A stretch of DNA of 32,000 nt from a virus (IMGVR_UViG_3300014059_000004); one strand, 5' to 3'. Positions 7,024-28,474 are shown, counted from the first letter of the stretch. The notes: generated by a model not told the origin, from the sequence alone. Translations and numbers: made by a program.

Positions 7024-7611
7024 ATGATGAACAAATCAATCATTGCGATCGTTCTTGCATCTCTTGCGCTCAATTGCAACCGTGAAGTTCCAGATGTCAG
7101 CGCAGCTTCAGCATCGCCCCATGTTGTTCCATCTGCTTCCGTTGAGCATGCTTCTACGCCCGCGGTCACAGTTGAACCTGCCAGCGTTTCCAATCGTCCG
7201 ATTCAGTGTCACACCTCAGAGGGAAAGCGACGTCTTCCAGATCCTGAGCTGACACCGGGAAAGCTGTGCACTGCCCAGGATCTTGACTTTGACGGGTATC
7301 GTTACCCAAGCAAGATTCCTTACTGCCGTCGTCGAGTCACTGAGAAGATGAAGATGACTGTTGCTTCTTCGTACGGAATTCCAAAGGAAGATTGGAACAA
7401 GTACGAATTTGATCACTACATCCCGCTTTCGGCTGGCGGTGCAAACGACGTGACAAACATCTGGCCTCAGCCGCTGGATGACGCAAAAGATAAGGACGTT
7501 GTTGAAGTTCAAGTGTACCGCGGGTTGAAGTCTGGTGAGATGACTCAGCCAATTGCATTGGCAAAGATCAGGTCGTGGAAACCCACTGGTTGCAAGTTAA
7601 GGACTCAATGA
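7024..7611 (+). CDS. secreted or lipoprotein HNH-motif nuclease-like protein
   Basis: ATG 7024 inside ORF 7000..7611; signal-like MMNKSIIAIVLASLALNC; C-terminal YEFDHYIPLSAGGANDVTNIWPQP (D-H ... N ... N HNH-type core). Confidence 0.55.
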   Translation: MMNKSIIAIVLASLALNCNREVPDVSAASASPHVVPSASVEHASTPAVTVEPASVSNRPIQCHTSEGKRRLPDPELTPGKLCTAQDLDFDGYRYPSKIPYCRRRVTEKMKMTVASSYGIPKEDWNKYEFDHYIPLSAGGANDVTNIWPQPLDDAKDKDVVEVQVYRGLKSGEMTQPIALAKIRSWKPTGCKLRTQ

Positions 7612-9841: not shown

Positions 9842-10900
9842 ATGTCGTTGAAGCGTGGGACAAAGGTCGAGCACGGGTATGCTACTGTTAGCGAGGACGA
9901 CGGTGTAAATTACCGTGAGATCGCTGAGACGATGACTGACATCGGATTCAAGATGAATCATTCGTCAGCACGCAATTACGTTCTCAGGGTCATGAGAAAG
10001 TTTGTTTCTGCTATGTCAGAGCAATGGGACATCGATCTCACAGAAGAGAGGATCGATCAGATTGCAAAATCTCCCGATTTTCAGCAGGGTGTTGCAGAGA
10101 TCCTTCAGACGATCGAAGCAGATCGTAGGGCACGAAATCGTAGCACGCACCGCTCGTTATTGCCCTATAGTTATAGGGCAAACATGAGCATCATCAAAGT
10201 AAAGAACTTGCCACGCTTGAAGCTGTCTGACCTGCTGCGACGCAGAAAGATGACGCTTAAATCATTTCTCGACGAATTCGGTATCACAACGTACGAAGGT
10301 CTCAAGAATCGTTGCGATCGTATGGGCGTTGCGCCTCCAGAACAACTCGAATTCGAGAAGATCTTTGGATCGTCAGCTCCTGCCATCACGATCAACAATC
10401 CAACGGAAGGAATCCTTGTTGTTGAGCCAGAAACAGCCCCAGACGTCGTCGTCATCACTGGTGCTGAGGTTGAAGAGCCAGAGTTGGCTTCCGAGCCATC
10501 ATCCGGGTCATTCGAATGGACCCAGAAAAAATCGAAGAAAAAGAAAGACGTAAGCTACGGTCAATTATTCATGAAAACAAATAGTGACATCGATGCCCCC
10601 GGTTCACGCAACCGAAGAGTGATCATCAACGTCGCCAAAGAAAAGAAGAGCAACAGATGCGCTCGCGAAGGTGAAGGCGTTCCGATCGAGATTGATCCTG
10701 TCGTAGAGGCAGTGAAAGAGTACGGTCGGAAGACGCATTCTTTGGGTGCGGCGCAAGGCGCTGCTGCGATCAGAGATCTGATCGGTAGAATAAAGGGATT
10801 GGGATCGTTGCCGGCTGAGCTTGAGAGCATAGTGAAAGCCGGCGAAGTTGCTGCAGACGAACTCTCTTCCTACTTCAAAAAGGCGTACGAACGGTTATAA
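9842..10900 (+). CDS. hypothetical protein with N-terminal sigma region 4 / LuxR-like helix-turn-helix
   Basis: ATG 9842 after AAGGAAAGAGGAA; VNYREIAETMTDIGFKMNHSSARNYVLRVMRKF looks like an HTH with recognition helix; acidic linker and Lys-rich stretch follow. Confidence 0.55.
   Translation: MSLKRGTKVEHGYATVSEDDGVNYREIAETMTDIGFKMNHSSARNYVLRVMRKFVSAMSEQWDIDLTEERIDQIAKSPDFQQGVAEILQTIEADRRARNRSTHRSLLPYSYRANMSIIKVKNLPRLKLSDLLRRRKMTLKSFLDEFGITTYEGLKNRCDRMGVAPPEQLEFEKIFGSSAPAITINNPTEGILVVEPETAPDVVVITGAEVEEPELASEPSSGSFEWTQKKSKKKKDVSYGQLFMKTNSDIDAPGSRNRRVIINVAKEKKSNRCAREGEGVPIEIDPVVEAVKEYGRKTHSLGAAQGAAAIRDLIGRIKGLGSLPAELESIVKAGEVAADELSSYFKKAYERL
10160..10181. repeat. perfect 10-bp inverted repeat TTGCCCTATA-GT-TATAGGGCAA inside a CDS
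   Basis: Read directly; located 3 nt before an in-frame ATG (10184) of ORF 9842..10900. Confidence 0.7.
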
Positions 10901-14766: not shown

Positions 14767-16131
14767 ATGAACCCGAAAATGTGGAAGACTTGCGAGTCAA
14801 ACTTCAACCTCGAGCGACACCTGATGGTTTTTCTTCAGGAGAGCGCTTTTTACACGGTGATCTCGCGGCACCTTCGCAAGGTTCCCTCCGAAGATCTGCC
14901 CACGGCTGCTGTCACCTTCGATGCGAAGGCAGATGAGCTGCGGTTGTATTACAATCCGAAGTTCTTCGACAGCCTGACGAACCTGCAGGTGAAGAACGTT
15001 CTCATCCATGAGTTCAACCACATCACTTTCGGTCACCTCGCCGCACGGCGTCGTGAGCCCGGGTCTACGTGGAACATCGCAACTGACCTTGCGATCAATT
15101 CGATGATCGTCACCAACGGTGCGAAGCGCCGAGAGTCTGACGCGTCGGACGGAGCACCCCTCCCGAAGGGATGTCTGATCCCGGGTGAGCGTCCTTTCAT
15201 CCCGCCGGAGCAGATCGCAAAGATGTCGCCAGAGCACCTGGCTTCCATCAACGAGATGGCGGACATGATCGAGAAGTTCCCCCATGGGCAGGCTTCCGAG
15301 TGGTACTTCAACAAGGTCGTCGAGCTCGCTCAGAAGCAGAAGGCGGCTGGAAAGCCGCAGTGCGCAGCGTGCCCGGGAGATGATCCTGGTGAGATCGAGG
15401 TCGTGTTTGGTTCCATGGACGATCATGACGGCTGGGATTCAATCCCTGACGAGATGCGTGAGTACATCGAGGGAAAGATCAGGGCTGTCATGGAGAAGGC
15501 CGTCGCTGCCGCAGACTCGAAGTCTGACGGCTGGGGTAACATCCCCGCAGAGATGCAGGCAGAGATTCGTCGAAGCATCTCGAAGGTCGTCAACTGGCGA
15601 ACTGTCCTGCGCCAGTTCATCGGCACGATGGTTCGCGGCGAGCGAGCGACGAGCATCAAGCGGATCAACCGTCGTTACCCTTACATCCACCCGGGTGTGA
15701 AGCGTGGGTACACTGCTCGACTGCTCATCGCGATCGACCAGTCTGGTTCCGTCGATGACGAGCAGCTCAGTTCGTTCTTCTCGGAGCTTCACTCTCTGAC
15801 TCGGCGGGTCACGGTCGACATCCTTCCTTTCGACTGCTACGCAGACATCAAGGATCTGTTCGAGTGGAAGAAGGGAACGAACCCGAACCTGAAGCGGGTT
15901 CATGGTGGCGGCACCGACTTCAACGCTCCGACTCGGATCGTCAATGACGTGAAGAATCGTGGACGTTGGGACGGCATGCTCATCATGACGGACGGCGAGT
16001 GCTGCGCACCGGAAGCTAGCCGAGTGAAGCGTGGCTGGGTTCTCAGCAAGAACCACAAGCTGATGTTCGACACCGACGAGATTCAGATCTTCGTCGATGA
16101 TTCGAAGCCCATCACTGGTGCATGGCGATGA
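14767..16131 (+). CDS. VWA-domain protein with N-terminal HExxH metallopeptidase-like domain (DUF2201-like)
   Basis: VLIHEFNHITFGHL zinc motif near the N-terminus; C-terminal LLIAIDQSGSVDDE (MIDAS-like DxSxS) ... GGGTDF ... LIMTDGE. Confidence 0.7.
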   Translation: MNPKMWKTCESNFNLERHLMVFLQESAFYTVISRHLRKVPSEDLPTAAVTFDAKADELRLYYNPKFFDSLTNLQVKNVLIHEFNHITFGHLAARRREPGSTWNIATDLAINSMIVTNGAKRRESDASDGAPLPKGCLIPGERPFIPPEQIAKMSPEHLASINEMADMIEKFPHGQASEWYFNKVVELAQKQKAAGKPQCAACPGDDPGEIEVVFGSMDDHDGWDSIPDEMREYIEGKIRAVMEKAVAAADSKSDGWGNIPAEMQAEIRRSISKVVNWRTVLRQFIGTMVRGERATSIKRINRRYPYIHPGVKRGYTARLLIAIDQSGSVDDEQLSSFFSELHSLTRRVTVDILPFDCYADIKDLFEWKKGTNPNLKRVHGGGTDFNAPTRIVNDVKNRGRWDGMLIMTDGECCAPEASRVKRGWVLSKNHKLMFDTDEIQIFVDDSKPITGAWR

Positions 16132-16487
16132 CTGCACCCAGGAAGCCGAAGCGCAACGATGTCTTCCCCGGAGCTGCCTTCACGGTTGCTCCGGGGAAGC
16201 AGTTGCACCTTGACGCCCACCTTCTCTTGTCGGGTGTATCGAAGATGGCACCGTCAGGGACGGCAATCACAGTTGTCTCAGGGCCAAAGAAGAGTAAGGA
16301 CGGCATCAACCTCGTGAGGGTTGATCTGAAGACAGGGGACGGTCGAACGTACGATTGCTTCTACTGCGACATCCTGGCCAACTGCGTGGTCGAGTTATGC
16401 ACGTACTTATTGTTACAACAATCGTTGTTGGTATCATCTGTTGGTTCTTTCCAAAATTTGGCAGGTACGCTGTCGTTGCCCCCATAG
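16122..16487 (+). CDS. hypothetical protein
   Basis: ATG 16122 overlapping the upstream stop; its 3' third overlaps the next TM gene, so the true end or the neighbour's start is uncertain. Confidence 0.45.
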   Translation: MAMTAPRKPKRNDVFPGAAFTVAPGKQLHLDAHLLLSGVSKMAPSGTAITVVSGPKKSKDGINLVRVDLKTGDGRTYDCFYCDILANCVVELCTYLLLQQSLLVSSVGSFQNLAGTLSLPP

Positions 16488-17342: not shown

Positions 17343-17546
17343 ATGGAAAGCTGTCCAGCAACAGTTGGAGACCGCATCGTGGTGTGCGGTTACATAGAAT
17401 ACGATTGCAAAGTTTCAGCCACGACTTGGATTCCGGAAGAAGCACGCTGGAAGATAACTGTCGATTGGGGTGCGCTTGGCGAGTCGCACGTTTGGTCAAC
17501 TGATCGTGATAAGACGTGGTACCTCTTGAAGGTCGTCAATTTATGA
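17343..17546 (+). CDS. hypothetical protein
   Basis: First ATG (17343) in ORF 17325..17546 (GTG 17325 alternative). Confidence 0.45.
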   Translation: MESCPATVGDRIVVCGYIEYDCKVSATTWIPEEARWKITVDWGALGESHVWSTDRDKTWYLLKVVNL

Positions 17547-19583: not shown

Positions 19584-20102
19584 ATGATTACAAACCTATC
19601 AAATCTTCGAAAGATGATTAGAGAATCTCTGGCAGAGAATAGTGCGTTTAATCTCAAAGTTGCAGATGTGTCTAACAACGACAAGCTGTATCATGCAACT
19701 TCTGAACTAAACGTTGATTCAATCATGAAGCAAGGTCTTGTTCCGAAGAACAATTGGGAAGAACAAACGCATGAACCTGCTGTATTTGTCATCAATGACA
19801 TGTACGGTGCACTTGACATGTATGAATGGATTGGTCACAAAAGACAAGCAGTTGTCTTTGAGATTGATGTGCAGAAATTGCTTTCATTGAACCCTAACAT
19901 TATTTTTTACAATGATGCTGATTCAGGTGATGGAGCATACTGGACTCCTTCAGTGATTCCACCTTCAGTTCTAACGCTAGTTGAGTTCGATGATTTATCC
20001 AGCCATGGTGTAGATGGTACGCACACTCGCCTGAAGAGCCTGGGGGTCCCGTTCGATTCGGGATGGCTGGACTGCATGTTTGAAGAAGAGACTGATACTT
20101 AG
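19584..20102 (+). CDS. H-type ART-fold protein (Tpt1/KptA- or DarT-like) with N-terminal NLRKMIRE leader
   Basis: KLYHATSELNVDSIMKQGLVP resembles the YH(G/x)T ... (S)I ... GL opening of Tpt1/KptA and DarT; the later AVVFEIDVQKL ... GAYWTPSVIPPSVL resembles the KptA C-terminus as I recall it. Confidence 0.45.
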   Translation: MITNLSNLRKMIRESLAENSAFNLKVADVSNNDKLYHATSELNVDSIMKQGLVPKNNWEEQTHEPAVFVINDMYGALDMYEWIGHKRQAVVFEIDVQKLLSLNPNIIFYNDADSGDGAYWTPSVIPPSVLTLVEFDDLSSHGVDGTHTRLKSLGVPFDSGWLDCMFEEETDT

Positions 20103-20106
20103 AAGC

Positions 20107-20607
20107 ATGGTAATGAAATTTTCCGCGCTTCGCAAGCTAGTTCGTCAGCTCGTAAGAGAAGGCGAAGGTTGGCCAACAGAATCGACTTCTGAACTTTACG
20201 GTGGAGGATCTGGCGTTGACGTTCGGAATCCACGAAATCCAAAGCCAAACACGCAAGGTGCAACTCGCCTTCCAAAGGGCCCAAACTCAAGAGATAATCT
20301 CGGTGAGGGTTACAAGCGTCCATCGCAAGCTGAACTGCAGCAATGGTCGCAAGGAAATTACGATGAGATCAATGAAGATGCATCGGCCATGACGCAAGAT
20401 CCTTGCGAGGGTTGCGGCGAGATGAAGCCTTCGAACGAGCTTGCTCAAGCAAAAGATGACGGTAGCGAGCGCGGTGGAAAGTATCTCTGCCAAGCATGCT
20501 CCGGTAACATGTTAAGAATCGCAGAGGTGCGCGAAAAAGTTAGCGGCCAGATTGCAACCCTGGTGTTACTCGGTGCGATACCGAGCCTCTGCTCTAGTTA
20601 CGAGTAA
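20107..20607 (+). CDS. hypothetical protein with N-terminal ALRKLVRQLVRE leader and C-terminal CxxC...CxxC
   Basis: ATG 20107 (or 20113) inside ORF 20080..20607; CEGCGEM ... CQACSGN zinc-ribbon-like pairs. Confidence 0.5.
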   Translation: MVMKFSALRKLVRQLVREGEGWPTESTSELYGGGSGVDVRNPRNPKPNTQGATRLPKGPNSRDNLGEGYKRPSQAELQQWSQGNYDEINEDASAMTQDPCEGCGEMKPSNELAQAKDDGSERGGKYLCQACSGNMLRIAEVREKVSGQIATLVLLGAIPSLCSSYE

Positions 20608-20615
20608 ACGTTCTC

Positions 20616-20629
20616 CGGGCTTCGGCTCG
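20616..20629 (+). terminator. UUCG-tetraloop hairpin after the stop codon
   Basis: CGGGC-TTCG-GCTCG, 9 nt after TAA 20605-20607; no T tract, so it may be a stabiliser or processing site rather than a terminator. Confidence 0.25.
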
Positions 20630-20692
20630 TGGTGTAAAGGCAGCGCGCTTTGCTGATGGCAGAGAGGTGAGGGTTCAAATCCCGAAGTTGAA
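20621..20692 (+). tRNA. possible tRNA-Ile (GAT), irregular D and T stems
   Basis: Acceptor TTCGGCT/AGTTGAA (2 G:U), arm CTTTG-CTGATGG-CAGAG, T arm GAGGG-TTCAAAT-CCCGA with tandem G:A pairs; 72 nt. Confidence 0.35.
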
Positions 20693-20701
20693 AGTAATGT
20701 T

Positions 20702-21177: not shown

Positions 21178-21351
21178 ATGGAAATCAAGAAGGTTCTCAA
21201 GTACGTTAGTTTGGCTGGTGCTGTTCTTGCTGCTGGTGCCGCTATCGGTGTTGCGGTGAAGTTGCTGAAGGAGAAGCTTCAAGAAGAAAAGCCGCAGAGC
21301 TTAATCTGCTACGCTAGCTATACTCGAATGGCTTCAGAGGGCGCACTGTGA
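21178..21351 (+). CDS. small membrane protein (57 aa); ORF runs into tRNA-His
   Basis: Hand-translated MEIKKVLKYVSLAGAVLAAGAAIGVAVKLLKEKLQEEKPQSL...; AAGGTAAG upstream; no in-frame stop before the tRNA at 21313. Confidence 0.35.
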   Translation: MEIKKVLKYVSLAGAVLAAGAAIGVAVKLLKEKLQEEKPQSLICYASYTRMASEGAL

Positions 21352-22156: not shown

Positions 22157-22230
22157 CGCTTTGAACAGAAACGTCCACTTCCATAAATGGTCGTATTTTT
22201 CTTGTTACATCTTTCGCACGTATACGACAT
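22078..22230 (-). pseudogene. frame-shifted N-terminal zinc-ribbon segment of the same endonuclease gene
   Basis: MSYTCERCNKKNTTIYGSGRFCSKRCAHRRS... from ATG 22230; a 1-nt frame change near 22150-22156 would join ...FCSKRCA to SSSISTDETKKK of the 21473..22156 frame. Confidence 0.5.
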
Positions 22231-22252
22231 GCATGTAAGTATTACATTAATC

Positions 22253-22302
22253 AGGATAGATTCAATCTTGCTACACGGGTTCGAGTCCCGTTGAGGTCGC
22301 CA
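22253..22302 (+). pseudogene. 5'-truncated tRNA-like remnant with loop AGATTCA
   Basis: AGGAT-AGATTCA-ATCTT, variable GCTAC, T arm ACGGG-TTCGAGT-CCCGT, TGAGGTC-G-CCA; no matching 5' acceptor strand, and that position is occupied by the start of the - strand endonuclease gene. Confidence 0.45.
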
Positions 22303-22303
22303 A

Positions 22304-22435
22304 ATGTGCATCAAAACAACCTGCGAAAAGTGCAACAAACCAACGTTTTCGGGCTGCGGAAAGCATGTAGAACTTGTGCTCCGTGATGTTCCGCCAGAGG
22401 AGCGTTGCAGGTGCAAAGAAGACAAGAAAGAATAG
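22304..22435 (+). CDS. small Cys-rich protein (43 aa)
   Basis: Hand-translated MCIKTTCEKCNKPTFSGCGKHVELVLRDVPPEERCRCKEDKKE; I recall a small conserved MC..TTC..C.K.T.SGCG.H... family; ATG is 1 nt after a CCA end. Confidence 0.5.
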   Translation: MCIKTTCEKCNKPTFSGCGKHVELVLRDVPPEERCRCKEDKKE

Positions 22436-22923: not shown

Positions 22924-23286
22924 ATGAAGTACTTCGTTGTGCTCTTTACAATTATGATCCTAGTTGGTTGTGGGTCAGACGCTAGCGATGATTCGCAGCT
23001 TGTGATTCATGAGCAAGTGAACCCCGAGCACCCAGTTTCAGGTTGGAGCTACGGAAGTAAAGATTACGATTCATGCTCATCACCTCGAATTCGAAGAGTC
23101 AGGCACGCAGAAGACGGAACGTCGATCAGCGTTCCAGAGCTTTGCAATCCTTACTGGCGCGATCGTGGTGATCCGATTGAGCGTCAGAATCCTGCGGAGG
23201 ATATCATCCGCATGCCCGAAGTAACAGTTCAGGGCAAATTAACTACACTTGGTCAAATGATGGAATGGCAGACATGTGAGTTTTAG
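22924..23286 (+). CDS. lipoprotein (lipobox LVGC); 3' end overlaps tRNA-Leu
   Basis: ATG 22924 in the frame of ORF 22744..23286 (the upstream part is tRNA sequence): MKYFVVLFTIMILVGCGSD...; the last 36 nt lie inside the tRNA at 23251. Confidence 0.55.
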   Translation: MKYFVVLFTIMILVGCGSDASDDSQLVIHEQVNPEHPVSGWSYGSKDYDSCSSPRIRRVRHAEDGTSISVPELCNPYWRDRGDPIERQNPAEDIIRMPEVTVQGKLTTLGQMMEWQTCEF

Positions 23287-25608: not shown

Positions 25609-25659
25609 ATGAGCAACGTGAAGCAAGTGATCGTGGTGCGAACAGACCTAAAAGATTAA
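25609..25659 (+). pseudogene. remnant 5' end of a pth2 gene (16 codons)
   Basis: MSNVKQVIVVRTDLKD-stop; VKQVIVVR(T/N)DL is identical in protein to residues 6-16 of the Pth2 gene at 26375, but every codon differs. Confidence 0.55.
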
Positions 25660-26440
25660 TATGCAAATAGGTTCGGAAATCATATATACATAATGACGCT
25701 TGATGATAAACGCTTTTATGGCTATAAACATTGGACACTTGAGAAAATTCCTCGTTGTTTTTATGTAGGTAAAGGATTGATTCGTCGACCATACGACGGT
25801 CGACGAAGTAAAAAGTGGCATGCAGTTGTTAAAGCTTTTGGATTGAGAGTCGAAATTTGCATCGGACCTGTAACTAATAAAGAAGCAATCGATTGGGAAA
25901 TACTAACAATCAAAACTACGGGAACCTATAGCAAAAATTACATTTACAGAGGGAATGATGTAAGTTGCAATTTTACCCAGGGTGGTGATGGTGCTTCTGG
26001 GCGACAACTTTCTAGTGACGCTCGTCTAAAAATTGGTGATGCTCAACGAGGAAAAGAAAAATCGAGTGAAACACGTTTGAAAATTAGTGAATCACTCAAA
26101 GGTAGAAAATTGTCACTAGAAGTTCGACAAAAAATGAGTCTTATTCGTAAAAATAAGCAATTGTCTAAGACACACAAAGAAAATTTGTGGATTAGAAGAT
26201 CTAGAACATTTTCTGAACAACATCGTAAAAAGCTTAGTGAAGCTGCTAAGAAAAGAAAAGTATCACAAGAAACTTGTGCGCGAAGGAGCCTTTCTCTTAA
26301 AGGAAAATTTCATCATTGTAGTTTGTGTGGGTTGATCGGTCATAATCGTTTGTCGTGTGATTTCAAAGTTGAATATGAAAAAATTTGAAGTTAAACAGGT
26401 AATAGTTGTAAGAAACGATCTTGGAATGAGAAAAGGCAAG
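25656..26440 (+). mobile_element. GIY-YIG homing-endonuclease cassette carrying a replacement 5' end for pth2
   Basis: AT-rich block bounded by the truncated pth2 remnant on the left and by the return to normal composition about 65 nt into the Pth2 ORF on the right; boundaries approximate. Confidence 0.45.
25693..26388 (+). CDS. GIY-YIG family homing endonuclease with NUMOD3 repeats and a C-terminal CCHC knuckle
   Basis: FYGYKH ... CFYVGKG ... R ... E ... N layout; five or six S.E.R.K(I/M)S..(K/R)G-type repeats (for example SSETRLKISESLKGRK); HHCSLCGLIGHNRLSC = CX2CX4HX4C. Confidence 0.7.
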   Translation: MTLDDKRFYGYKHWTLEKIPRCFYVGKGLIRRPYDGRRSKKWHAVVKAFGLRVEICIGPVTNKEAIDWEILTIKTTGTYSKNYIYRGNDVSCNFTQGGDGASGRQLSSDARLKIGDAQRGKEKSSETRLKISESLKGRKLSLEVRQKMSLIRKNKQLSKTHKENLWIRRSRTFSEQHRKKLSEAAKKRKVSQETCARRSLSLKGKFHHCSLCGLIGHNRLSCDFKVEYEKI

Positions 26441-26887
26441 ATAGCTGCGCAAGTTGCTCATGCATCGATGCAGTTCCTGCTCGATGCGAATCAGTCTGAT
26501 TCTTTCGGTGAGTTGCATGTGGTGCTGACGCCCGAAGAGATCGAATGGTTGAACGGATCATTCACCAAGATTGTCGTAGGTGTGGATTCAGAGAACGTTT
26601 TGAACGAGCTCGTCCTTCGAGCTAAGATGTCAGACATCACTGTCTTCCAGATCGTTGATTCTGGCAAGACTGAATTCAATGGAGTTCCAACGTTGACTTG
26701 CGCAGCATTTGGACCAAACGATGCTGCAGACATCGATAAGATCACTGGTCATCTAAAACTCATCTTACAACGGGCGCATAGCTTAGTGGCTAAAGCATTT
26801 GGTCTACACCCAAATTATCGGGGGTTCGAGTCCCTCTGCGCCTACAGTGGAAACATGCTCGAGAGGCTGAAGAGATCGGTTTGCTAA
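26375..26887 (+). CDS. pth2: peptidyl-tRNA hydrolase, Pth2 (archaeal/eukaryotic) type; ORF reads through tRNA-Val
   Basis: ATG 26375 inside ORF 26357..26887; VIVVRNDLGMRKGKIAAQVAHAS ... KIVVGV ... IVDSGKTEF ... PTLTCAAFGP ... ITGHLKLI; homology should end near 26765, but no stop occurs until 26885-26887. Confidence 0.75.
   Translation: MKKFEVKQVIVVRNDLGMRKGKIAAQVAHASMQFLLDANQSDSFGELHVVLTPEEIEWLNGSFTKIVVGVDSENVLNELVLRAKMSDITVFQIVDSGKTEFNGVPTLTCAAFGPNDAADIDKITGHLKLILQRAHSLVAKAFGLHPNYRGFESLCAYSGNMLERLKRSVC
26772..26844 (+). tRNA. tRNA-Val: tRNA-Val (TAC) with C33
   Basis: Acceptor GGGCGCA/TGCGCCT, D arm GCTT-AGTGGCTA-AAGC, arm TTTGG-TCTACAC-CCAAA, T arm GGGGG-TTCGAGT-CCCTC. Confidence 0.8.
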
Positions 26888-26938
26888 ACCGAAGGCCCCG
26901 AAAGGGGTCCATGGGTTCGAATCCCATTGTTTCCTCCA
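26849..26938 (+). tRNA. tRNA-Ser: tRNA-Ser (GCT), long variable arm, CCA encoded
   Basis: Acceptor GGAAACA/TGTTTCC, D arm CTC-GAGAGGCTGAA-GAG, arm TCGGT-TTGCTAA-ACCGA, variable AGGCCCCGAAAGGGGTCC, T arm ATGGG-TTCGAAT-CCCAT, T-CCA. Confidence 0.9.
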
Positions 26939-26939
26939 A

Positions 26940-27203
26940 ATGATTGTTCCTTGCCCGAATTGCAAACGTCAAGTAACGTTGAACAGCGAACCATCTCGAG
27001 GACCCATCATTGATGGTTCAGAGTGCTGGTTGTGCTTGAAGTGCCCGGCGACGGTGTGCGTCATGTGTTACCTTGACCACACTTCAGAGAAGCATAGGGA
27101 TTGGATGGAAGGCAAAGAGAAGAAAAAGAAGAAATTAGGAAGGTTTCGCACATTGGCAAGTCAGACAGCTTCGAACTCTGTCGAACATAGTATTATGTTC
27201 TGA
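26940..27203 (+). CDS. zinc-ribbon protein; ORF runs into tRNA-Ser(CGA)
   Basis: ATG 2 nt after the CCA of the preceding tRNA; CPNC ... CWLC ... C..C.MC Cys pairs, Lys-rich tail; no stop before the tRNA at 27138. Confidence 0.5.
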   Translation: MIVPCPNCKRQVTLNSEPSRGPIIDGSECWLCLKCPATVCVMCYLDHTSEKHRDWMEGKEKKKKKLGRFRTLASQTASNSVEHSIMF

Positions 27204-27226
27204 GCGTTCAACTCGCTCACCTTCCT
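27138..27226 (+). tRNA. tRNA-Ser: tRNA-Ser (CGA), long variable arm, weak D stem
   Basis: Acceptor GGAAGGT/ACCTTCC, arm ACAGC-TTCGAAC-TCTGT (31:39 C:T), 7-bp variable hairpin GAACATA-GTAT-TATGTTC, T arm GAGCG-TTCAACT-CGCTC. Confidence 0.6.
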
Positions 27227-27245
27227 CTAACGCCGTAATTACTAC

Positions 27246-27500
27246 ATGTGCTACACTTGCATGCTCAACAATCCGCTTGCGGTCTCTGATGATTCAACTT
27301 CACCGAGGCGCAAGCGTCAACGATTGCTAGAGATCAAGCAGATCTTCCTCACGATGGAAGGCGCCACACCATGTGCGTACGGGGCAGAAGCGCTAGCAGC
27401 TCTTAAGGATGAACAATACAGGCTTTCTAGAGAACTATTACACGGTAAGATGGCCGAGTGGACGAAGGCAGCTGCTTGGAAAGCAGTCGGGGTGGGTTAA
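27246..27500 (+). CDS. hypothetical protein; ORF runs into tRNA-Ser(GGA)
   Basis: 84-aa ORF, ATG 27246; codons from 27444 onward are tRNA sequence. Confidence 0.4.
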   Translation: MCYTCMLNNPLAVSDDSTSPRRKRQRLLEIKQIFLTMEGATPCAYGAEALAALKDEQYRLSRELLHGKMAEWTKAAAWKAVGVG

Positions 27501-27538
27501 ACCTGCCCCCAGAGGTTCGAATCCTCTTCTTACCGCCA
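27444..27538 (+). tRNA. tRNA-Ser: tRNA-Ser (GGA), long variable arm, CCA encoded
   Basis: Acceptor GGTAAGA/TCTTACC, D arm GCC-GAGTGGACGAA-GGC, arm GCTGC-TTGGAAA-GCAGT, 23-nt variable arm, T arm AGAGG-TTCGAAT-CCTCT, G-CCA. Confidence 0.9.
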
Positions 27539-27547
27539 GGAGATTAC

Positions 27548-27937
27548 ATGCCAACGAAAAAGATCAAAGACGTCGATCCGAAATACCTTGATAAGGTGTG
27601 CTACGATCCCGGACACAACGTACCAGGCATGCAGGTTTTTGAACCAGGAACGTACGAGCATACGTGTCCATCGTGTGGAAACAAGATTGTATTTACAGTG
27701 TCCAGACCATTTTGGTTAGGCACAATGCGGGTAAAGCCTATTGGTAGGGCAGCAGTTTTCCAAACTGTCGCGAAAGCATTGAGAGTTCGATTCTCTCTAT
27801 CCGCTCAGGTGAAACGTAGATTATGTCAGCAGAAAAAAAGAAGATCAGAGCGGCATTTCGTGATGCCGTTTTTGCTCGTGATGGCAGGAGATGCAAGAAG
27901 TGTTCAGCTACGGTCGCTGATTACTTGCGCTTCCTAG
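27548..27937 (+). CDS. small zinc-ribbon-like protein; ORF runs through tRNA-Gly (true end uncertain)
   Basis: ATG 27548 after AGGAG inside ORF 27458..27937; C..PGH ... CPSCG; from 27727 the frame reads tRNA sequence and then overlaps the next HNH gene. Confidence 0.4.
   Translation: MPTKKIKDVDPKYLDKVCYDPGHNVPGMQVFEPGTYEHTCPSCGNKIVFTVSRPFWLGTMRVKPIGRAAVFQTVAKALRVRFSLSAQVKRRLCQQKKRRSERHFVMPFLLVMAGDARSVQLRSLITCAS
27727..27805 (+). tRNA. tRNA-Gly: tRNA-Gly (TCC) with a 12-nt variable region
   Basis: Acceptor GCGGGTA/TATCCGC, D arm GCC-TATTGGTAG-GGC, arm GCAGT-TTTCCAA-ACTGT, variable CGCGAAAGCATT, T arm GAGAG-TTCGATT-CTCTC. Confidence 0.75.
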
Positions 27938-28143
27938 ATGCTCACCACATCACTGATAGAAACTTGATGCCCAACGGTGGTTACGTTGCGACGAATGGCA
28001 TCACGTTGTGTCCAAAGTGTCATGAAGCCGCAGAGCTATTTCACAGCACTGGTGTGGCTGCAGATGGCTTTTCTCCAGACGATCTGTACAAATTGATCGG
28101 ATCTAGCTATGATCTTGCCGTGAAGGACTCTAACAAGCTATAA
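27823..28143 (+). CDS. HNH endonuclease
   Basis: AGGTGA SD; CKKC ... LDAHHITDRNLMPNGGYVATNGITLCPKCH. Confidence 0.75.
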   Translation: MSAEKKKIRAAFRDAVFARDGRRCKKCSATVADYLRFLDAHHITDRNLMPNGGYVATNGITLCPKCHEAAELFHSTGVAADGFSPDDLYKLIGSSYDLAVKDSNKL

Positions 28144-28144
28144 C

Positions 28145-28474
28145 ATGTCAACCGAAGATACTATCGCTAAGCTAGTGAAGATTGCTGTGAAGCACGATAC
28201 GCTTCTTAACGCTCTAGCCAAAGGCATCGCAGATCTAGTTGAAGCAGTGTGGCCAACGATCGCAAAGTGCGAAGTTGATTCTTGCGTTGAAGCTCAAACT
28301 GTGAAGCTGCACGGCAAGAAGATCTGCGATCGACATTGCGCAGAGATGATCAACGATCTTAGCATCGATGATTCAGAATGGGAACCGTTGAGCAATGCTG
28401 AAAGCGTACGGCGCGTTTCTGATTACAGGAAGATAATCTTTGGTGAGGAAGAAAGCAAGGTACGTCACTTATGA
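28145..28474 (+). CDS. hypothetical protein
   Basis: 109-aa ORF starting 1 nt after the upstream stop. Confidence 0.5.
   Translation: MSTEDTIAKLVKIAVKHDTLLNALAKGIADLVEAVWPTIAKCEVDSCVEAQTVKLHGKKICDRHCAEMINDLSIDDSEWEPLSNAESVRRVSDYRKIIFGEEESKVRHL

Follow-up and report, generated by a model that had tools for sequence, protein, structure and literature searches.

UUA is a stop codon in the mitochondria of Labyrinthulea (NCBI table 23, Thraustochytrium). Where mitochondrial tRNAs punctuate transcripts, stop codons are completed by polyadenylation, and in Streptomyces UUA stands inside genes and is read as leucine when the bldA tRNA is present. The Streptomyces codon is rare and bldA-dependent (PMC10732093). 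UUA and UCA are stops in peDinoflagellate plastids and UUR is a stop in Marsupiomonadales mitochondria, and the plastid case has been called the first sense-to-stop change outside mitochondria (PMC12574857). The same paper links organellar UUA termination to a change of RF2 Ser204, the serine of T-S-F, for which its supplement shows T-C-F or T-A-F (PMC12574857). Phages with recoded stop codons use codes 4, 15 and 25 and include crAss-like, Lak, Jade and other phages (bioRxiv 2021.08.26.457843). In the literature covered by our search, which left most subscription papers outside, phage recoding runs only from stop to sense, and UUA as a stop is only organellar (a few mitochondria and one plastid lineage).

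The portion of the phage genome that we analysed is a 32-kb window, by which we mean the whole stretch of DNA. It has a GC content of 48% and 39 tRNA genes, and it also encodes a DNA ligase, an RNA ligase, a sigma factor and a tail-fibre-like gene. The contigs that carry its syntenic relatives measure 277-369 kb, so the window is part of a jumbo-phage genome. The window DNA is not an assembly artefact, because wastewater, soil and freshwater studies assemble near-identical DNA and a strain with 90-95% protein identity carries the same TTAs.

Between 26772 and 27806 the tRNAs run Val, Ser, Ser, Ser, Gly. This is the order given in an earlier reading made from the sequence alone (below, the sequence-only reading), and Rfam agrees with it except for Ser(CGA). 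The genes and tRNAs of the array, followed by the other genes that run into a tRNA under code 11, are as follows.

26375-26767, plus strand: Pth2 peptidyl-tRNA hydrolase, 130 aa; TTA end at 26765-26767, 4 nt 5' of tRNA-Val; TAG, TGA or TAA there in relatives
26772-26845, plus strand: tRNA-Val(TAC), found by ARAGORN and Rfam
26849-26938, plus strand: tRNA-Ser(GCT), CCA encoded, found by ARAGORN and Rfam; an ATG follows 1 nt 3'
26940-27137, plus strand: Cys-rich protein, 65 aa; TTA end at 27135-27137, 0 nt from the tRNA; TGA there in homologs L172 and L007
27138-27227, plus strand: tRNA-Ser(CGA), found by ARAGORN, under the Rfam threshold
27246-27440, plus strand: protein, 64 aa; TTA end at 27438-27440, 3 nt 5' of the tRNA; TAA, TGA or TAG at the exact codon in 6 relatives
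27444-27538, plus strand: tRNA-Ser(GGA), found by ARAGORN and Rfam
27548-27718, plus strand: zinc-ribbon-like protein, 56 aa; TTA end at 27716-27718, 8 nt 5' of tRNA-Gly; TAA there in L018 and L015
27727-27806, plus strand: tRNA-Gly(TCC), found by ARAGORN and Rfam
27823-28143, plus strand: HNH protein, 106 aa; TAA end; TTA at codon 107 in the close strain L003
6719-6889, plus strand: membrane protein, 56 aa; TTA end, 13 nt 5' of tRNA-Gln
19584-19997, plus strand: protein, 137 aa; TTA end, 1 nt 5' of tRNA-Phe
20113-20514, plus strand: protein, 133 aa; TTA end, 6 nt 5' of tRNA-Cys
21178-21303, plus strand: membrane protein, 41 aa; TTA end, 10 nt 5' of tRNA-His
22924-23241, plus strand: lipoprotein-like protein, 105 aa; TTA end, 9 nt 5' of tRNA-Leu(TAG)

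Pfam PTH2 (PF01981) aligns with residues 6-130 of Pth2 over model positions 1-115 of 115, at 104.4 bits against a curated cut-off of 23. The match of the 27548 protein to Zn_Ribbon_TF is weak and under the cut-off. We also saw a tRNA-like element at 22216-22302, with a CCA end and a T-loop, that neither ARAGORN nor Rfam reported; 1 nt 3' of it stands the ATG at 22304.

The sequence-only reading had noticed seven ORFs (26375, 26940, 27246, 27548, 22924, 6719 and 21178) that lack TAA, TAG and TGA before the next tRNA. This holds under code 11, but the count is nine, with 19584 and 20113. The reading had also placed the ends of these frames inside the tRNA that follows, which is wrong for two of them: the 27548 frame runs on to 27937 within the HNH gene, and the Pth2 frame reads through tRNA-Val to a stop at 26887, in tRNA-Ser. 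In all nine overrunning genes (9/9), the first in-frame TTA lies 0-13 nt 5' of the tRNA (gaps of 13, 1, 6, 10, 9, 4, 0, 3 and 8), a placement with a rough chance of 5e-11 if one TTA is placed uniformly per gene. The ordinary stops of the genes at 22304 and 4224 are 5 and 8 nt from a tRNA, which is the same spacing. There is nothing unusual in the layout of the tRNA array, which is densely packed: a gene, its stop, a few bases and then a tRNA. The ORFs that overrun tRNAs result from reading the sequence with the wrong genetic code, code 11.

The 54 genes of the window end in TTA (24 genes, or 44%), TGA (14), TAA (11) or TAG (5). TTA is the sole unused sense codon, with 0 internal uses in 8,036 codons (599 of them Leu), although this count is partly circular, since genes were cut at their first TTA. 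A non-circular check is given by the 27 genes that are free of TTA up to a standard stop, including the longest genes and ones of 448, 454, 410 and 260 aa; two of the 27 are homing-endonuclease-like genes of 35-36% GC. Off-frame, TTA is common (166 of 16,072). In 17 of 19 cases in the window the first TTA lies within the final quarter of the ORF as code 11 defines it, whereas in the standard-code G003 and G004 the spread is even. UUA alone is affected: TTG is used 156 times and TCA 140 times inside window genes, and TAG and TGA do not stand for an amino acid inside the genes of the window, where long genes are intact under code 11. We rejected the idea that TTA marks a frameshift into T-TAA or T-TAG, as the base after TTA can be A, C, G or T. 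Several TTA ends away from tRNAs can be compared with relatives.

9842-10897, plus strand: three genes in one frame (9842-10159, 10178-10567 and 10571-10897); TTA is the sole closure of each, with no tRNA nearby
16122-16397, plus strand: gene with a TTATG overlap, in which the last A of TTA begins the next ATG; TGA in the L225 homolog
7024-7599, plus strand: protein, 191 aa; TTA end; TGA at that codon in the homolog of standard-code G003
17343-17543, plus strand: protein, 66 aa; TTA end; TGA at that codon in 6 relatives
28145-28471, plus strand: protein, 108 aa; TTA end; TGA at that codon in L178

Under code 11 the ORF at 9842 has 352 codons, and its homologs are three proteins with ordinary stops. 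There are three TTATG stop/start overlaps (the one in gene 16122-16397, 17541-17545 and 28469-28473), which are analogues of TAATG and TGATG.

A homing-endonuclease cassette lies at 25609-26432 with a pth2 stump upstream, and it is missing from a related strain (joint 25652 to 26432). The cassette is an AT-rich mobile gene with 0 TTA, and this means that the gene is adapted to the TTA-stop code.

Homologs place the end of translation at the same codon. Among the scored Pth2 homologs, 109 of 119 end exactly at residue 130, the last before TTA. In 9 of the 10 that are extended the next residue is Leu, and its codon is TTA where DNA is available. At the codon where 26940, 27246, 27548, 7024, 10571, 16122, 17343 and 28145 have TTA, relatives carry TGA, TAG or TAA, and the swap also occurs in reverse in the HNH gene (TAA in the window, TTA in L003). 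A marker gene ends at the same codon throughout, with TAA or TGA in standard relatives and TTA in L009 and L010. The tmRNA tag of the TTA-stop phage L004 ends in ALAA followed by TTA, and in standard relatives and in Myxococcota the tag closes with AA and then TGA or TAA. Judged from these comparisons of DNA and protein sequence, there can be very little doubt that TTA is kept out of the interior of genes, that it stands at their ends and that relatives exchange it for ordinary stops. We are also highly confident that UUA would act as the end of translation, a fourth termination codon beside UAA, UAG and UGA in a jumbo phage.

A nuclease-like gene of a standard-code relative (L005:3419-3838) ends in TTA-TGA and was possibly acquired from a TTA-stop phage.

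The TTA-stop code is found in the window and in L003, L004, L009, L010, L177, L227 and L499 (GC 37-52%). It is also found in G006, a complete phage of 435,218 bp and 65% GC in which 70 of 614 genes end in TTA. G006 is distant, with 37 of its 614 proteins matching the standard-code G003, G004 or L005, and the window family is a TTA-stop lineage separate from it, at a GC content where TTA is expected to be common. Syntenic relatives of the window use the standard code, so that the code is patchy. On a one-gene marker tree of 32 rows, which left out eleven loci without the marker and in which most inner branches are weak, the code label needs at least 2 changes, and 4 in the best tree.

We found no tRNA-Leu(UAA) among the 39 tRNAs of the 32-kb window, the 35 in L004 or the 44 in the complete G006, and none in L003. 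L009 has a damaged one (L009:3137-3225), with C33 and an acceptor-stem mismatch. It is flanked by tRNA-Cys and tRNA-Thr, and the corresponding place in the window (20621-20693) is taken by an odd tRNA that was called as Ile(GAT). Standard relatives often keep tRNA-Leu(UAA). In G003 (L332-L347), which uses the standard code, there are 25 TTA in 85,518 codons, still Leu, against 508 CTA, and we did not find tRNA-Leu(UAA) there. From its codon counts G003 looks like an intermediate, at a stage before codon capture. The route that we infer is that the lineage would have lost its working tRNA-Leu(UAA), that TTA would then have been purged from genes and that the freed codon would have been taken as a stop. 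In G006 (331929-332683, L322) there is an amber-suppressor-type tRNA (CUA) near a small gene that is Pth2-like by eye.

The sequence-only reading had explained the overruns under code 11, with RNase P cutting at tRNA 5' ends to give non-stop mRNAs, or else with protein tails encoded by tRNA sequence. The nine ORFs do overlap tRNAs under that code and the short leaders after tRNAs are conserved. However, this account leaves unexplained why a TTA precedes each of these tRNAs, why genes contain none internally and why relatives have ordinary stops at the same codon, and homologs do not have the tails. The 15 further genes that end in TTA far from any tRNA rule out tRNA processing as the cause of the missing stops. 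Each of the genes closes with TTA at a place where its homologs carry ordinary stops, and because the genes end at a TTA stop their mRNAs are not non-stop, so we find the code 11 account scarcely credible. A different possibility is that UUA goes unread, with the ribosome stalling for want of a tRNA and a rescue pathway releasing the finished protein (ArfB-type release once the mRNA is cleaved, or drop-off plus Pth). The outcome would be that of a stop, by a different chemistry. Neither a cognate tRNA nor a release factor was found in the TTA-stop phages, and Pth2 is encoded in the block. The earlier reading too had called for rescue, by tmRNA, ArfA or Pth2, but that need is not borne out, as Pth2 is present in standard-code relatives and canonical Pth2 is absent from the complete G006. 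In addition, stalling would have to end 44% of window genes, including those at translationally coupled TTATG junctions, and the tmRNA tag of L004 itself ends in TTA, so that rescue would depend on rescue. We think this improbable.

The codon could instead be read with the help of a phage-encoded factor. This could be a release factor, diverged and encoded in another part of the genome, or a host release factor could be retuned by a small adaptor or modifying enzyme of the phage. The patchy code, with its repeated changes on the marker tree, fits a transferable gene, and known recoded phages carry code-change modules (bioRxiv 2021.08.26.457843). The searches point the other way and make such a factor somewhat unlikely: a search of the complete G006 gave nothing for PF00472 at E values up to 1 and nothing for a release-factor profile, and the best candidate common to G006 and a TTA-stop locus is also in a standard-code phage. 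PF00472 had no match in G001, G002, G006 or G509-G511, and an indirect comparison of the contigs of TTA-extended Pth2 with the best 120 phage release factor hits gave none in common. An RF1-like gene beside NADAR/Pth2, present in 7 standard relatives, is missing from all 8 TTA-stop loci, though it is also missing from many standard ones. It is less likely still that an undescribed bacterial lineage itself uses UUA as a stop and that the phages follow the code of their host. In favor of this, the code is common to two distant phage lineages, from 37% to 65% GC, in which we recognised no phage factor. Against it, TTA is either absent or an internal Leu codon in about 790 kb from 11 T-A-F Myxococcota genomes, a small sample, and no gene there clearly ends in it; the cellular loci that we screened do not have the TTA-at-end pattern.

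The short RF1-like factor, with PPT/PPN and GGQ motifs, is split after about 37 codons in standard-code loci (L005:6520-7192; L166:1456-2120, minus strand; L167:1450-2110, minus strand). The split in L005 is at CTT-TGA, a prfB-type +1 frameshift site, which is unusual on an RF1-type gene. A small CxCC protein common to G006 and L004 was rejected as the code determinant, since a phage that has tRNA-Leu(UAA) and internal TTA encodes it too. Three unrelated jumbo phages (L004:7731-7961, G006 291554-291799 and L498) encode, within their tRNA arrays, a small protein with a CGCC motif for which we found no family.

Our best single guess at the mechanism, which we hold tentatively, is that host RF2 reads UUA after the loss of competition from tRNA-Leu(UAA). 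The reader would be a class-1 release factor of the host, most likely an RF2 in which Ala replaces the serine of T-S-F, a variant that many Myxococcota have, and the reading of UUA would start once the competing host tRNA-Leu(UAA), scarce or inactivated by the phage, is gone. We identified no phage gene that would remove the host tRNA-Leu(UAA). From the tmRNA tags and the neighbors of Pth2 we would guess, weakly, that the host is a member of the Myxococcota; the protein atlas gave no usable host signal for the window phage. T-A-F replaces T-S-F in 20 of 68 genomes (about 30%) in the family of the Polyangiaceae MAG G012 (L375, L377, L392), and T-A-F RF2 occurs in 3 of 33 Myxococcota sampled across the phylum. 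In the T-A-F bacteria that we examined TTA is an internal Leu codon, with tRNA-Leu(UAA) in 4 of 5, and therefore the T-A-F change alone is not sufficient for UUA termination and is at most permissive. An apparent tie between T-A-F RF2 and a missing tRNA-Leu(UAA) in the Polyangiaceae-family genomes (4/20 vs 35/48, p = 1e-4) was discarded as an artefact of the search pattern; a looser pattern found the tRNA in 4/5. T-S-F is present in 19 of 20 RF2 genes from viral contigs, and SPF was intact among the 150 matches listed, for which the pattern matched Ser. The lone viral T-C-F RF2 is a 112-aa fragment in a provirus (L520:1342-1680, minus strand; IMGVR_UViG_3300049983_000006) that keeps SPF, has no GGQ domain and lies beside a serine recombinase; this provirus uses TTA as Leu. 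Taking the routes together, it is probable that several jumbo-phage lineages made a sense codon a stop on bacterial ribosomes without a recognisable release factor, via a host RF2 variant plus removal of the host tRNA-Leu(UAA) or via a UUA-stop host.

The 5' side of these genes is a separate matter. The ATG of 26940 is 1 nt 3' of tRNA-Ser(GCT), and it is 2-3 nt after a tRNA in at least 8 relatives that include both codes. The sequence-only reading had described starts shortly after tRNAs without a Shine-Dalgarno sequence. The short leaders are real (1 nt for 26940, 7 for 25425, 9 for 27548 and 10 for 19584), but SD-like GGAGG/AGGAG sequences precede 25425 and 27548. An SD of at least 4 nt is present in just 7 of 34 other window genes, and so the lack of one is not special here. 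It is plausible from this arrangement that tRNA 3' processing releases a near-leaderless mRNA, which would be independent of the code change.

The phage resembles the organellar UUA-stop systems in that UUA stands only at 3' ends where homologs stop, the standard stops are kept and no intact cognate tRNA was found in the phage DNA covered. It differs in being a phage on bacterial ribosomes, with only UUA affected, with close relatives that keep the standard code and with no altered release factor found in phage DNA, G006 being the one complete genome. As in phages with codes 4, 15 and 25, the phages are large, the code is patchy among relatives and the proposed route is codon loss followed by reassignment. 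However, those phages turned stop into sense with suppressor tRNAs, and here sense became stop, with all three standard stops in use. UUA is, as with Streptomyces bldA, a rare, tRNA-limited Leu codon of high-GC bacteria, but in the window it is never inside genes and marks conserved ends. Like mitochondrial punctuation, the window has tRNAs interleaved with genes at 0-13 nt and possibly near-leaderless mRNAs. Unlike it, the stops are complete and encoded before the tRNA, with no truncated T or TA ends at tRNA boundaries; the gaps before tRNAs vary, and adding A gives no in-frame stop.

Under code 11, 24 of the 54 window genes are annotated with a wrong C-terminus or as a fusion, and false tails are already in database entries. 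Close relatives that differ in UUA, together with apparent intermediates (TTA purged in G003, the decayed tRNA-Leu(UAA) in L009), form a testable series for codon capture. The organellar proposal that a change of RF2 Ser204 reads UUA becomes testable in bacteria. If host tRNA-Leu(UAA) is indeed removed, this would also truncate the host proteins that contain UUA. Either route, if true, would be the first sense-to-stop code outside organelles.
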